DNA of 64,000 nucleotides from an uncultured delta proteobacterium (GCA_963771465.1 CAVYTU010000017.1:384001-448000), one strand, 5' to 3'. Shown: positions 54,735 to 60,045, counted from the first letter of the stretch. Notes: generated by a model not told the origin, from the sequence alone. A program made the numbers and translations.

Positions 54735-55781
54735 ATGAAGATCGTTCGATTGATCGTCTTGGTTCTTTCACTGCCGCCATTTGCCGCGGTAGCGCAAACG
54801 AAAAAGCCGGCGTCCATCGCCGAGCTGGCGGGTTACCTCGGCTCCGATCGCGAGCAAGTGCTTTACGCCGGCGCGAAGGCCGAGGGCAAGGTTGTCTGGT
54901 ACACTTCACTCGCGGGTGGGTCGTACAAAGAGATCGCCGAAGTTTTCGAGAAAAAATATTCCGGCGTGAAGGTCGAGTCGTTTCGAGCCTCGGGGAGCGA
55001 ATTGACCGTCAAATTGGAGGAAGAGACCAAAGCCCGTCGCTATATCGCTGACGCCATTGAAACGACCGAAGGCAACCTTATGTTCATGCGCGACGGCAAA
55101 TTACTCAGGCCGTACAGTTCCCCACATCTAAAATCCTACCCTGATGACGCCAAAGAGCCGGCGGGAAAAGGTCTCTATTATTGGGCGCTGGCGAGAGAGT
55201 CTTATATCGGCTTCATGTACAACAAGACACTTGTTCAGAAAGGGATTTTACCGAAGAACTTCGACACACTGCTTAATCCCGAGCTCAAAGGCCGGATGGG
55301 CATCAGTGTCGGCGAGACCAGCGGCAAAATCCTCGGCGCAATGATCCGCAGCAAAGGCGAGGAGTTTGTCAAAAAGTTAAAATCCCAGGAGATCAGACTT
55401 TACTCCATCGACGCGCCGGCGCTGGTCAATGTGATCGCGTCTGGAGAGATCGTCGCTTCGCCGGCGATCTTTCAAACCCATACGCTGCTCGCGGCGTCAA
55501 AAGGCGCGCCGCTGGAGTGGGTGCCGATGGATTTGGTGCCGACCAACGTGGGCAGCGCCGCGGTGGCGGCCAATCCGCCCCATCCTCATGGCGCGTTGCT
55601 GATGGCTGACTTCTTGTTGAGTCCGGACGGGCAAGCCGTGCTCGAAAAATATTACTACGGCAGCGCGACCAAGGAACACGGATTCAAAAAATGGCGTCCT
55701 GAACGTGGCTTGACGACCGACAACTACGAAAAAGAGCTGCTTCGTTGGGAAAAACTTTTGAAGGAGATCACGCGGAAATGA
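54735..55781 (+). CDS. Extracellular solute-binding protein (AfuA/Fe3+-type fold)
   Basis: Signal peptide, GAKAEGKVVWYTSL, FEKKY, PHPHGALL. Confidence 0.88.
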   Translation: MKIVRLIVLVLSLPPFAAVAQTKKPASIAELAGYLGSDREQVLYAGAKAEGKVVWYTSLAGGSYKEIAEVFEKKYSGVKVESFRASGSELTVKLEEETKARRYIADAIETTEGNLMFMRDGKLLRPYSSPHLKSYPDDAKEPAGKGLYYWALARESYIGFMYNKTLVQKGILPKNFDTLLNPELKGRMGISVGETSGKILGAMIRSKGEEFVKKLKSQEIRLYSIDAPALVNVIASGEIVASPAIFQTHTLLAASKGAPLEWVPMDLVPTNVGSAAVAANPPHPHGALLMADFLLSPDGQAVLEKYYYGSATKEHGFKKWRPERGLTTDNYEKELLRWEKLLKEITRK

Positions 55782-55790
55782 GGGAAGAAA

Positions 55791-55871
55791 GGATTGGAGT
55801 GATGGAGTATCGGAATGTTGGATTGCTGGGTCCGGCAACATCACTCCAATACTCCACCACTCCAGTACTCC
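55791..55871. repeat. Imperfect inverted repeat with 8-bp-periodic arms
   Basis: tggagtga tggagtat cggaatgt tggattgc ... tcactcca atactcca ccactcca gtactcc. Confidence 0.8.
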
Positions 55872-55981
55872 GTTCCGTTATAGAGGGGATCATGATGAAC
55901 GGCATGTCGGGCCCTTGTGGCTCTTTAAAATTCACTAGAAGCGTAATAAGGATTTAATAACGTTTCTGACGTAAGGAGAAT

Positions 55982-57076
55982 TTGGCGGTGAGAATTATCG
56001 ACGCTGACACGCATATCGACGAAACCGACGCGACTTGGGAATATATCAAGGGCAACGATCTACAATACAAACCGTCGACGGCTTTTCCTGCCAATCCCGA
56101 TCCTAAACTGCCACCGGCGCGCTACTGGGTGATCGACGGCAAGCGGCAAATCCGTTTCATTCGCAGCGACAAAGATTCAGGCACGACCGTGGACACGCGG
56201 GAGCTGCTCGATGTCAAAGCCCGGCTCAAGCATATGGACGAGCTCGGCACCGACATACAGGTCATCTACCCCACTTTGTTCTTGATGGAGGCCACCGATA
56301 AGCCGGAGATCAACACGGCGATGCGCCGCAGTTATAACCGTTGGTTGGGTGAGCGCTGTATGGAGTCAGGCGGCAGGCTGCGCTGGGTGTGCATGCCGCC
56401 GCTGCAAAACATGGATGCGACGGTGGAAGAGCTGACATGGTCCAAAGAACATGGCGCCTGCGGCGTGCTTAAAAAAGGCGACCGGGAAGCGGGCAAGTAT
56501 CCAGCCGATCCATACTTCGACCAGCTTTATGCCGAAGCGGAGAAGCTTGATCTGCCAATCTGCTTACACACCGGTTCCGGTATCCCAGATTTTTCACCGG
56601 CGCGGGAATTTTCCCATGGCCAATTCATGCGTACCAAAGCCGCCGCAATCAACGGCGTGCTGGGTCTCATCGTGCACAAGATTCCGGATCGGTTCCCCAA
56701 GCTTCGCATCGGTTGCATCGAAGCCGGGTCCATGTGGACGCCATTCGTCGCCTATGATCTACGCCGGCAGCAACTAAGACAGCAGGGACGCGAGGCGGTT
56801 GGCGTACTCGGAATTCCGGAGCTAAAAATCGCTGGCAACGTGTTTCGGGACAATCGAATCTACGTCACTTGCCAAGTCGACGAGGACTTGCCCTATATTA
56901 TCAAAACCGTCGGCGAAGATAACTTGATGGTCGGTTCCGACTACACGCACCGCGATCCGTCGATGGAACTGGAGTTCCGCAAAGTCCTGCAAGAACGCGC
57001 CGACAAAGGCGAGATTCCGCACGGGGTGATTCAGAAAATTCTCTACGATAATCCGAAAACGTTTTACGCGCTGTGA
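55982..57076 (+). CDS. Amidohydrolase_2 family protein
   Basis: AAGGAG + TTG start; IIDADTH, ICLHTG, IEAG, GSDYTH. Confidence 0.9.
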   Translation: MAVRIIDADTHIDETDATWEYIKGNDLQYKPSTAFPANPDPKLPPARYWVIDGKRQIRFIRSDKDSGTTVDTRELLDVKARLKHMDELGTDIQVIYPTLFLMEATDKPEINTAMRRSYNRWLGERCMESGGRLRWVCMPPLQNMDATVEELTWSKEHGACGVLKKGDREAGKYPADPYFDQLYAEAEKLDLPICLHTGSGIPDFSPAREFSHGQFMRTKAAAINGVLGLIVHKIPDRFPKLRIGCIEAGSMWTPFVAYDLRRQQLRQQGREAVGVLGIPELKIAGNVFRDNRIYVTCQVDEDLPYIIKTVGEDNLMVGSDYTHRDPSMELEFRKVLQERADKGEIPHGVIQKILYDNPKTFYAL

Positions 57077-57151: not shown

Positions 57152-57703
57152 ATGATTGTTCTCAGTCCGGAAGGAAAGGCGCAGACTTCGGCGGCGAAAG
57201 TCGCTGGGTTGCCGCAGTTCACCGATCTTCGAGGCAAGGTTCTTGGTCTGCTCGATAACAGCAAGCCCAATGCCGACAAGCTGGCGGAGCGTTTCGCCGA
57301 ATTGCTGAAAGAAAAGTACGGCGTTGCCAGCGTGATCACGCGGCGCAAGCTAACGGCACAGCAGGGCGCGCCCAAACAGTACCTCGATGAGTTGGCGGCT
57401 CAGGCGGATATCGTCTTGAGCGGACTGGGCGATTGAGGATCGTGCACGTCGTGGAGTGTCCACGACTCAATCGAGATTCAAAAGCGCGGCCGCTTCGCGG
57501 TCACGCTCATCACCCACGCCTTCGATGCGCTGGCGAAATCCGAGAAGGAAGCCTTCGGCGCGCCGGATCATCCGGTACTGATCGTGCAGCACCCGATCGG
57601 CACGGTGAAAGTGGAAGAAGTGAAAAAGCGCGCCGATGCGGCGTTCGATAAATTGGTGAACATTCTGCTTGCTCCCAAAGCGGCGCGCGCGAAAGTCGCC
57701 TAG
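57152..57703 (+). CDS. UGSC-family selenoprotein (Sec encoded by TGA 57434-57436), 183 aa
   Basis: The ORF track stops at LSGLGD*, but the frame continues GSCTSWSVHDSIEIQKRG...HPIG...AKVA to TAG 57703; UxxC motif; SECIS-like hairpin downstream. Confidence 0.92.
57448..57466 (+). promoter_or_regulatory. Bacterial SECIS-like hairpin
   Basis: GTCGTGGA-GTG-TCCACGAC: perfect 8-bp stem, G-initiated loop, 11 nt after the TGA. Confidence 0.8.
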
Positions 57704-57787
57704 TAAAATCGGTTTTGAGTTTCGGGTTTCGAGTTAGCTAGGAGATTCGAAGCCTGAGTTTTTTCGTTTAATGCCTCGCCCTGGTTT

Positions 57788-57870
57788 CGTCATGCCGGTG
57801 AAAACCGGCATCCAGATTCGGCTTTGAGGTAAACACGAAATACCTGGATCCCGCGTGTGCGGGAATGACG
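57788..57870. repeat. REP-like doublet (GTCAT...ATCCAG / CTGGAT...ATGAC)
   Basis: cgtcatgccggtgaaaaccggcatccag and inverted ctggatcccgcgtgtgcgggaatgacg; a related half copy at about 27230 (ctagataccggcgtccgccggtatgacg). Confidence 0.75.
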
Positions 57871-57913
57871 GAATGCGACCCGACTCGTCGGTAATTTTTG
57901 AAGGGTAGGAATT

Positions 57914-58966
57914 ATGGCAACGGCAGCATTGCAAGCGGAACGGTTTGAGATCCCAGATGACCTCTGGGAGGCGCAGGCTTTTTTCGAGGAGAAGGGCTGG
58001 TCGGATGGGCTGCCGATCATTCCGCCGACTGAAGATCGAGTCGCCAGGATGCTGGCGGCGACCAAGCGTAAGCCGGAAGAAGCCATCGGCGCCGTCCCGC
58101 CGCGCTGGGCGCAGGCGACCGTGGAAAAAATCGCCATCAACGCGGTGATGGCCGGCTGCAAACCGGAATATATGCCGACGTTGATCGCCTGCGTCGAAGC
58201 GATTACCGATCCGAAACTGAATCTCTACGCTCTGCAGGCGACCACTGGCGGGCCGGCGGTGATGATCATCGTCAACGGCCCGATCCGCAAGCAATTGGAC
58301 GTCAACGGCGGTTCTAACGCATTGGGCGAAGGTTGGCGCGCCAACGCGACCATCGGCCGCTTCGTGCAATTGATTAAGCGCAACATCGGCGGCTCGTATC
58401 CGGGGACTACGTGCAAGGCGACGCTGGGCTGGCCGGGAAAATATTCCATCTGCGTCGGCGAGAACGAAGAGGCGAGCCCATGGGCGCCGCTCCATGTCGA
58501 GCGCGGTTTCAAAGCAGATCAGAGCACGGTGACGGCGATCAGCGCGGATGCCTCCGTGCGCGCGTCCGATTTGGATAGCTCCAAGGCTGAAGGCGTGCTC
58601 ATCAACTTTGCGCAGAAAATGGAAGGACCGTCGGGGCCGGAAGCGATCATGGTGATCTGTCCGGAACATGCGAAGATCATCGCCGGTGATGGCTTCAGCA
58701 AGAAAGACGTGCAGAAATTCATCTGGGAACGCGCTGCTTACCGCATGAAAGACTTGCCCGACGAAACTTTTGCCCAGCGCGTCAAGCGCCGTTCGGATTT
58801 GAATCTTACCCGCGACAGCATCATCCCGGTGACTGACAAGCCGGAAGATATTCTTGTCGTCGTCGCCGGCGGCGATGGCTCGCAGTCGCAATATATTCAC
58901 GTCTGGGGACAGAGCACGCCGGAAGGCGGCTCGACGCGCAGTGTCACGAAAGTCATCCGGGATTGA
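57914..58966 (+). CDS. Conserved uncharacterised UGSC-associated protein
   Basis: GWSDGLPIIPPTEDRV, ATVEKIAINAVMAGCKPEY, RANATIGR; I recall this family beside or fused to UGSC domains. Confidence 0.8.
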   Translation: MATAALQAERFEIPDDLWEAQAFFEEKGWSDGLPIIPPTEDRVARMLAATKRKPEEAIGAVPPRWAQATVEKIAINAVMAGCKPEYMPTLIACVEAITDPKLNLYALQATTGGPAVMIIVNGPIRKQLDVNGGSNALGEGWRANATIGRFVQLIKRNIGGSYPGTTCKATLGWPGKYSICVGENEEASPWAPLHVERGFKADQSTVTAISADASVRASDLDSSKAEGVLINFAQKMEGPSGPEAIMVICPEHAKIIAGDGFSKKDVQKFIWERAAYRMKDLPDETFAQRVKRRSDLNLTRDSIIPVTDKPEDILVVVAGGDGSQSQYIHVWGQSTPEGGSTRSVTKVIRD

Positions 58967-59091: not shown

Positions 59092-60045
59092 ATGAAAAGA
59101 CGTTTTCTTGATTTTGTCGAGCTGGCTCCCAGAAGCCAGAAACCGCGCGCAAAGGGTCTCAGCACATTTGGTGACCGGGGCTATCCCCTCGATTGGATTC
59201 GCGGCATGCTCGATGCCTACGGCGACTACATCGACGTCGTCAAATTCACTCCCACATGCCTTCTCGTTCCGTGGGACGACATCGAGAAAAAGGTTAAACT
59301 CTACCGCTCGCACAACGTCGGCGTTGGCAGTGACGATCCAATATTTGCAATTTCCTATTTGCAGGGTAAGGCTGAGGAACTTCTGCGAACACTGCGCGAA
59401 GTTGGATTTACCCATGTGCAGGTCGATACACGTCACGTGGAGACGCCTAACCCCGATGCGGCAAAGAAGGCCGATGAGGACGAACAACGGTACTATGCGC
59501 TGGCTCGTGAATTGAACCTAAAAATCATGGGTGAAATTGGTAAGAAATGGCCCAAGGGCGACCGGATGCGTGCGGGGAAAGGCTCCGTGGATGTTCAAGC
59601 ATCTGTGTCCGATACCAAGCGATTGTTGGCGTTGGGCTGCGAACATGTCTACCTGGAAAGTCGCGTGATTCGCGATGCCATTGGCGACTACGGCGAACGG
59701 CAGGAAGGAACCCGGCAGATAACTGAAATCGTCGAGGCGGTCGGCAGCGAAAAGCTCTTTATCGAAATTTCCGGTCAAATTCCGTTTGACACGCGCCAAT
59801 GCCATCGTTTTTGGGCGGTCAGGAATTTCGGCCCCGAAGTCAACATGGGCGGTGGCGGATCGATCGAGGAGGCTCGCTACGTCGAGGCGATTCGCCGGGG
59901 CATCACGTTCGTTGGCGGCGTGGGCCGGTCGTCGAGCAAATTGTGGATCAAGTCGCTTGCCAACCACGGCGGGAAAGCCGCCGCCGAATGGTGGAAAGAA
60001 GAGTACGAGCTTGATCCATCTTTGATTTCGGCAAGCAAAATTTGA
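59092..60045 (+). CDS. Phosphosulfolactate synthase (ComA)-like protein, divergent
   Basis: KPRAKGL, YIDVVKF, EIGKK, LESR, FGPEVN, VEAIRRG. Confidence 0.75.
   Translation: MKRRFLDFVELAPRSQKPRAKGLSTFGDRGYPLDWIRGMLDAYGDYIDVVKFTPTCLLVPWDDIEKKVKLYRSHNVGVGSDDPIFAISYLQGKAEELLRTLREVGFTHVQVDTRHVETPNPDAAKKADEDEQRYYALARELNLKIMGEIGKKWPKGDRMRAGKGSVDVQASVSDTKRLLALGCEHVYLESRVIRDAIGDYGERQEGTRQITEIVEAVGSEKLFIEISGQIPFDTRQCHRFWAVRNFGPEVNMGGGGSIEEARYVEAIRRGITFVGGVGRSSSKLWIKSLANHGGKAAAEWWKEEYELDPSLISASKI

Follow-up and report, generated by a model that had tools for sequence, protein, structure and literature searches.

A UGSC-family selenoprotein and its conserved partner: a probable two-part enzyme whose selenocysteine region resembles PrdB and GrdB

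In the GOS metagenomes the UGSC family is represented by 255 sequences, fifth of 51 selenoprotein families (PMC2398784, Table 2). The same survey, by Zhang and Gladyshev in 2008, describes UGSC as a major GOS family of 'likely Trx-like' proteins and reports its fusion to a domain called 'Unknown_1', for which the text and figure available from that paper give no function, structure or mechanism. In the portions seen of PMC1976440, PMC9312934 and PMC13188914 the family is listed without a function, and the last of these, a 2026 review, still places UGSC among largely uncharacterised Trx-like proteins. A term search of the main text of the Haft preprint (10.1101/2022.07.06.499078) gave no mention of UGSC, and our literature search, whose coverage lay outside subscription journals, returned no functional study of it.

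The closest systems of known chemistry are the selenoprotein subunits PrdB and GrdB/F/H (PF07355, TIGR04483), for which our source on the PrdB mechanism is the available part of PMC11229817. Like UGSC, they contain a strand-UxxC-helix-E-x-x-G-x-P-strand-...-H/F-P-x-G unit, and they pair a selenocysteine (Sec) subunit with a larger subunit. UGSC differs from them in being shorter, and its N-terminal half aligns poorly with theirs. The genes scanned in the window (the whole 64,000-nucleotide stretch of DNA analysed here) also differ from the Grd/Prd systems, in that none belongs to a pyruvoyl proprotein, PrdC, GrdA or GrdC/D family. The features discussed below are collected in Table 1.

Table 1. 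Features of the UGSC locus and its surroundings, in positions of the window.
Feature	Position	Strand	Remarks
Amidohydrolase-2 gene	55982..57076	+	Directly 5' of UGSC; kept there within the genus, not family-wide; context only
UGSC family selenoprotein gene	57152..57703	+	183 aa, Sec95-Gly-Ser-Cys98; basis: read-through ORF, PF24696 and NF041046 matches
In-frame TGA, predicted Sec codon (residue 95)	57434..57436	+	Basis: TGA at the motif in paralogues and related loci, Cys in non-TGA fusions
SECIS-like hairpin	57448..57466	+	8 pairs, 3-nt GUG loop, begins 11 nt past the TGA; basis: covariation
Terminator-like hairpin	57721..57768	+	15 pairs and T run, between UGSC and partner genes; putative function
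REP-like palindromic repeat	57787..57872	.	Intergenic spacer; matched at 15 places in the genome
Partner gene ('Unknown_1')	57914..58966	+	350 aa; unmatched in Pfam, NCBIfam and PDB; model confident but without clear fold match
Partner Cys82 (MAGC)	58157..58159	+	Conserved in 119/123 homologues and 66/66 full fusions
Partner N103-L-x-x-x-Q108-x-T110-T111-G112 loop	58220..58249	+	Predicted by the model to share the interface with the Sec site
Partner Cys180, in K-Y-x-x-C-x-x-E-N-E-x-x-S-P-W block	58451..58453	+	Conserved in 116/123 homologues

Under translation table 11 the first gene of the pair is an open reading frame of only 94 aa; when its single TGA is read as Sec, the product extends to 183 aa with U95-G-S-C98 in the middle of the protein (residues D-U-G-S-C-T-S-W-S-V-H-D-S-I-E-I-Q-K-R-G-R-F-A-V-T-L around the Sec). 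The read-through protein matches PF24696 over positions 2-171/172 with 157 bits (cut-off 25) and NF041046 with 133.5 bits (cut-off 125). Since the PF24696 match spans both sides of the TGA, the two halves form one domain. A TGA occupies the motif in all six UGSC matches of the window's genome and in every UGSC match of 63 related loci, and the Sec forms keep UxxC in 96 of 97 sequences. Our initial search for Cys homologues found only two proteins; among 66 natural full-length fusions that have no TGA, 61 carry Cys at the Sec position and five have no Cys there. The motif is CxxS in 44 of these 66 which, together with the five, indicates that a resolving Cys is not universal. Thus, as judged from sequence, this is a true selenoprotein gene of the catalogued UGSC family and an ordinary copy of it, with no family-level difference from the 'UGSC-containing protein' in what was seen of PMC1976440 and PMC2398784. 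The preliminary description of this DNA was therefore right to call the gene a UGSC selenoprotein. It had also called the pair undescribed, which is not the case: the family is catalogued (PF24696, NF041046) and the UGSC/Unknown_1 fusion has been in print since 2008.

The insertion of Sec at the UGA would depend on the SECIS-like hairpin just downstream. Across 58 distinct sequences, 89.7% of cells in this hairpin are paired and 40 double changes alter both sides; none of 500 shuffles scores as high, and controls slid along the alignment reach at most 50.4% paired and 13 double changes, a comparison that favours the hairpin insofar as its structure came from folding the window itself. Judged by the window sequence without its relatives, the hairpin is weak (z between -1.3 and -2.1). 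The genome encodes tRNA-Sec, and its selA, selB and selD exceed their cut-offs. A one-base shift interrupts selB near codon 27 (G000:C14 198726-200613; L089 ~1498), but the extra base is missing from near-identical contigs in four of four public DNA runs, one of which may be the source sample, and we therefore regard the shift as an assembly error. Further apparent frameshifts in the assembly, including those of a broken UGSC copy on the same contig, may be errors as well. From the sequence we strongly infer that Sec95 is inserted at the UGA via the downstream hairpin. At six other loci (L051, L081, L082, L083, L065, L084), selA- or selB-like genes, named from sequence without a profile scan, lie within 6 kb of the pair.

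We now turn to the linkage of the two genes. In the window's genome, UGSC and partner form two split pairs and, as open frames of 555, 570 and 573 aa, three fusions; one further copy is broken. Among homologues, fusions occur in both orders. As related loci we took the best 80 of 600 partner loci confirmed in GTDB genomes, chosen by likeness to the partner. UGSC lies on the same strand in 63 of these 80, within 300 bp in 55 of the 63; by the nearest copy, 18 loci are UGSC-first and 45 partner-first, and three are fused. The remaining 17 loci have no nearby UGSC; ten of them belong to Poribacteria, three have less than 1.2 kb of downstream flank, and in all five of the genomes tested UGSC is found elsewhere. 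Because the loci had been picked by partner likeness, we made a second draw of 80 genomes from another phylum: the partner occurs in seven, UGSC in five, all of them among the seven, and neither in 73. Among close genomes UGSC is present in 37 of 41. Sequence distances of UGSC and partner are correlated as well (Mantel r of 0.915 over 61 pairs and 0.749 among distant pairs, against 0.127 for the highest of 999 shuffles), a correlation to which shared ancestry contributes. The survey of co-occurrence and fusion suggested at the outset thus finds that the two genes travel together, and the early view of a Sec protein with a conserved partner is borne out by their adjacency, co-occurrence and fusion. 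UGSC and partner are very probably the parts of one two-part enzyme. In a 3.2-Mb Dehalococcoidia genome (G103; L233, L239, L242), UGSC is matched 11 times and the partner 12 times.

The partner itself corresponds to a domain already in print. The published block AVNGVMAGCRPEYMP...NGP of 'Unknown_1' (PMC2398784, Fig. S1A) matches partner residues 74-123, including the highlighted Cys; by this match, the window partner is the 'Unknown_1' of Zhang and Gladyshev, here a separate gene and in the seen part of their paper fused to UGSC. Its family is large, with 5,625 clusters at 50% identity (E up to 0.001). The protein had been portrayed as a 350-aa neighbour with a conserved-looking MAGC and several more Cys; the length, the MAGC and four further Cys are indeed there (residues 82, 93, 167, 180 and 249 in all), but across 123 aligned homologues only Cys82 and Cys180 are conserved. 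Position 93 is mostly Ala (110/123) and position 167 mostly Asp (91/123), and position 249 is Cys in 38 of 123. The predicted structure is confident (pLDDT 95.4, pTM 0.93). Among 48,161 chains the best fold matches reach Z 4.5-4.6, none being 5 or higher, and Foldseek gives no hit with E of 0.001 or less; such a lack of structural matches does not prove a new fold. Searches of PDB sequences with either protein or either profile gave nothing significant, and the ESM Atlas returned the partner's own family only and, for a UGSC domain, no usable match. In seven single chains of 637-741 aa (P0124, P0126, P0153, P0172, P0213, P0253, P0312) the partner domain is duplicated in tandem, a hint that it may work as a dimer. 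In one further protein (P0194) it is fused behind an unrelated N-terminal domain that has no Pfam match.

In order to examine the fold of UGSC and its interface with the partner, we modelled a natural Cys fusion, P0271, whose two halves share 37.6% and 39.9% identity with the proteins of the window. The fusion model is confident (pLDDT 93.5, pTM 0.92). Its UGSC domain has a flavodoxin/Rossmann-like alpha/beta architecture, the top 50 structural matches having Z of 9.2-11.5 and rmsd of 2.5-4.7 A over 112-148 residues, and no thioredoxin title appears among those 50. The model of this Cys homologue thus differs from the 'likely Trx-like fold' given for UGSC in PMC2398784, as far as that paper was available: it suggests that the UGSC domain is flavodoxin-like rather than thioredoxin-like, and disfavours a thioredoxin fold.

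When the halves of P0271 are modelled as two chains, they score 0.83, against 0.10 for the best of three controls; 116 of 157 solved complexes reach this mark, as do 2 of 215 mismatched pairs, a calibration that is roughly valid here, where our own alignment was used. At least 96% of contacts are shared between the two-chain runs, and the partner pLDDT is 91 or more. The model supports the binding of UGSC and partner to each other as a heterodimer, although halves of one gene pass such a test easily; PDB searches nevertheless gave no like complex. The tightest contacts join the N-terminal strand of UGSC to that of the partner. In window numbering, the residues named in the predicted interface are Sec95, G96, S97, T99-W101 and H104 on the UGSC side, and W29, P63-T69, N76, M79, N103, Y105-L107, A109-G112 and N157 on the partner side. 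Since the Sec site and the QxTT residues appear together in this list, which holds no Sec-to-residue distances, we take the Sec to face the QxTT loop. It had been suggested that multimer modelling might reveal whether the Sec faces a partner Cys; for this homologue binding is predicted, but the list of interface residues does not name the equivalents of the conserved Cys82 and Cys180, whose place there is uncertain. With an effective number of 41 for the 66 fusions, the mutual information between their domains was dominated by noise and is not used here.

To compare UGSC with PrdB and GrdB we built a PrdB/GrdB-like profile from loci none of which exceeds the TIGR04483 cut-off, using first 13 of 30 loci and then 22 in a wider alignment. 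HHalign aligns UGSC to this profile with a probability of 92.3% (E 5.5e-7) over 61 columns, which cover strand-UxxC-helix-ExxGxP-strand-HPxG; among 73 control families taken from the genome, none scores above 34.7%. The score falls to 81.6% when the Sec is masked and to 58% when Sec and Cys are both masked. Natural Cys-type UGSC domains align to the PrdB/GrdB-like profile with 84%; against the reversed profile the probability is 0.2-0.3%. The wider alignment, in which one row (L167) of the 22 is in a wrong frame and was kept, gives 89.5% in local and 68% in global mode with the Sec masked on both sides. The window UGSC protein itself has no match to PF07355 or TIGR04483 at E up to 0.01, and no PrdB/GrdB structure was present for comparison among the structural matches listed. 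On this evidence the Sec-bearing unit of about 60 residues is probably homologous to that of PrdB/GrdB, UGSC not being a PF07355 member. The partner has no PF09338 match, and HHalign gives 0.1% against PrdA/GrdE-like proteins and 0.5-3%, no match, against the PrdB-like profiles. Thus the PrdB-like layout that had been noticed around the Sec is upheld as an alignment of some 60 residues and does not extend to PF07355 membership; and of the proposed two-subunit analogue of Grd/Prd, a linked partner and a distantly similar Sec region remain, but the partner is not PrdA/GrdE-like.

The window's genome, from soil and with close homologues labelled Candidatus Binatia, also contains five separate GrdE/GrdB-like pairs with in-frame TGA (on C7, C11, C13, C15 and C17; L137-L142, L180, L194), as well as a PrdB-sized gene at C15:394343. 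Its relatives have up to ten GrdE-like matches.

Several observations bear on the supply of electrons. In 23 of the 80 loci the partner match is immediately preceded by a redoxin-like domain, and fusions to FTR-beta exist among homologues. A thioredoxin-reductase-like gene with a CASC motif follows a UGSC/partner fusion on contig C11, and does so again in 12 of the 14 related regions retrieved (of the other two, one stops at a contig edge and one has no such gene); it is not present in the six regions from the other phylum and stands beside one further locus. This divergent fusion (C11 144065-146810), with a USTC motif and the reductase-like gene directly after it, is the self-contained system best suited to an assay. 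No thioredoxin or reductase gene adjoins the window copy.

As to the neighbourhood of the window copy, an orthologue of the amidohydrolase (80-88% identity) stands 5' of UGSC in 12 of 12 testable orthologous regions, and a TPP enzyme lies nearby in seven of the 12; the SBP gene at 54735 is in none of them. The genome holds about 132 amidohydrolase-2-like open reading frames. The neighbours differ among the 80 loci, with an amidohydrolase at three, MmgE/PrpD at six, and transporters and others besides. The preliminary description had derived the substrate from the upstream SBP, amidohydrolase and TPP enzyme. This does not carry over to the family, given that the SBP is found only in the window, the TPP enzyme in seven of 12 regions, and none of the three as a family-wide neighbour; such a pathway is conceivable for this paralogue alone, and possible there. 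An MmgE/PrpD-family gene adjoins UGSC-first pairs in three phyla (L009, L010, L037, L043, L070, L072), and may be a clue to the substrate of that UGSC-first subfamily. Downstream in the window, a gene resembling ComA (phosphosulfolactate synthase) at 59092-60045 scores below the NCBIfam cut-off and is followed by NMT1/SsuA-like binding proteins; it is not found at the corresponding place in related regions.

Between the two genes, a hairpin with T run recurs at a similar place in six of the 12 orthologous spacers printed. It is a matter of speculation that partial termination at 57721-57768 could offset inefficient UGA read-through and so balance the two subunits. A scan for promoters and terminators gave no excess over shuffles (2 versus 2.5; 6 versus 7.5). 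A second and different REP-like palindromic intergenic repeat, also matched at 15 places in the genome, lies at 55790-55875. In one metatranscriptome the TPP, SBP, amidohydrolase, UGSC and partner genes are all represented by near-identical contigs, UGSC across its TGA, which indicates presence in an RNA library and does not establish transcription or linkage of these genes. Among the RNA contigs listed (213 more pieces exist) none bridges UGSC and partner, which proves nothing on linkage.

How, then, might the pair work? On balance we lean towards a thioredoxin-fed Sec reductase that acts on a small substrate. The UGA would be decoded as Sec95 with help of the downstream hairpin, and UGSC and partner would form a heterodimer equivalent to the natural fusions, a step for which linkage is observed and binding is modelled on the homologue. 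Sec95 would lie where a helix begins, opposite the NLxxxQxTT loop, W29, N76 and N157 of the partner, as their modelled co-location suggests, and these partner elements would make a substrate pocket in the cleft. By homology with PrdB/GrdB, the selenolate would attack a substrate atom and break a heteroatom bond, after which Cys98 would resolve the adduct to a selenenylsulfide. A resolving Cys and a selenenylsulfide step are general selenoenzyme chemistry. Binding or activation of the substrate would fall to the partner, which in contrast to PrdA/GrdE would use no pyruvoyl group for it. Finally, the site would be regenerated either by a thioredoxin-like protein together with thioredoxin reductase or by a ferredoxin:thioredoxin reductase, as suggested by the fusions and neighbours of other copies. 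The presence of many paralogues with differing neighbours suggests several small organic substrates. That the pair carries out specifically a PrdB-like reductive carbon-heteroatom cleavage is, by analogy, possible if doubtful.

Other readings must be weighed against the thioredoxin-fed reductase. The one that survives best, though we consider it rather unlikely, is a redox-neutral enzyme (a lyase, isomerase, hydrolase or group transferase) in which Sec is a covalent nucleophile and thioredoxin merely repairs the oxidised site. The CxxS of most Cys-type fusions (44/66) fits such an enzyme, as do the catabolic neighbours (amidohydrolases, MmgE/PrpD at 6/80 loci, CoA-transferases) and the window copy's want of a redox neighbour. 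However, the near-universal UxxC of the Sec sequences (96/97), the independent recurrence of redoxin, TrxB and FTR links, and the fact that the nearest profile relatives are reductase subunits all speak against it.

Less likely again is a reductase for detoxification or repair, acting on sulfur or metalloid oxides or on disulfides in the manner of Msr or arsenate reductase, in which Cys82 or Cys180 of the partner would serve as relay thiols. The UxxC motif, the two conserved partner Cys and the thioredoxin links would suit it, and the part seen of PMC2398784 suggests a redox role for the Unknown_1 Cys; yet the two conserved Cys are missing from the residues named for the predicted interface, itself an uncertain point, no metal-resistance family occurs among 85 neighbours scanned, and substrate diversification would better suit genomes with as many as 11 copies set among transporters and catabolic genes.

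We also considered the partner as a remote relative of the alpha part of class I (Fe-S) fumarate hydratase, the pair binding a metal or Fe-S cluster via Sec and Cys, and we hold this to be very unlikely. A fumarate hydratase heads the partner's Foldseek list (7xky, E 8.5e-3), and this family gives the longest structural alignments (167-192 residues), but with TM of 0.23-0.27, Z of 3.1-3.7 and rmsd of 5-6.5 A; the resemblance to fumarate hydratase/tartrate dehydratase alpha (PF05681) is of the weakest level, with noise-level scores. The HHalign probability is 0.18%, below the reversed control, and the partner has just two conserved Cys.

Finally, it is highly improbable that the genes are independent neighbours or that the TGA is a true stop, since the terminator-like hairpin between the genes, the 17 of 80 partner loci without nearby UGSC and the weakness of the post-TGA hairpin on the window alone (z -1.3 to -2.1) are outweighed by fusions, both gene orders, co-occurrence and co-divergence, by UGSC elsewhere in five of five tested genomes that have no nearby copy, and by Cys homologues and SECIS covariation.

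Of interest here is the picture at the level of the family; the locus is an ordinary copy of a known family beside a known, uncharacterised partner, itself of a large family without a solved relative. UGSC can probably not be studied without that partner. Tentatively, and with more doubt than we attach to the thioredoxin-fed reductase as such, UGSC and Unknown_1 may represent a third branch of the Grd/Prd type: a minimal selenoprotein-B domain docked to a substrate-binding subunit that is free of pyruvoyl and has a fold still to be solved, with thioredoxin as its electron source. Such a branch would have expanded in bacteria of soil and water, for the reductive carbon-heteroatom cleavage of several small organic compounds. 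The natural Cys-containing single-chain fusions can be expressed without Sec machinery, and so a question open since 2007 becomes directly testable.
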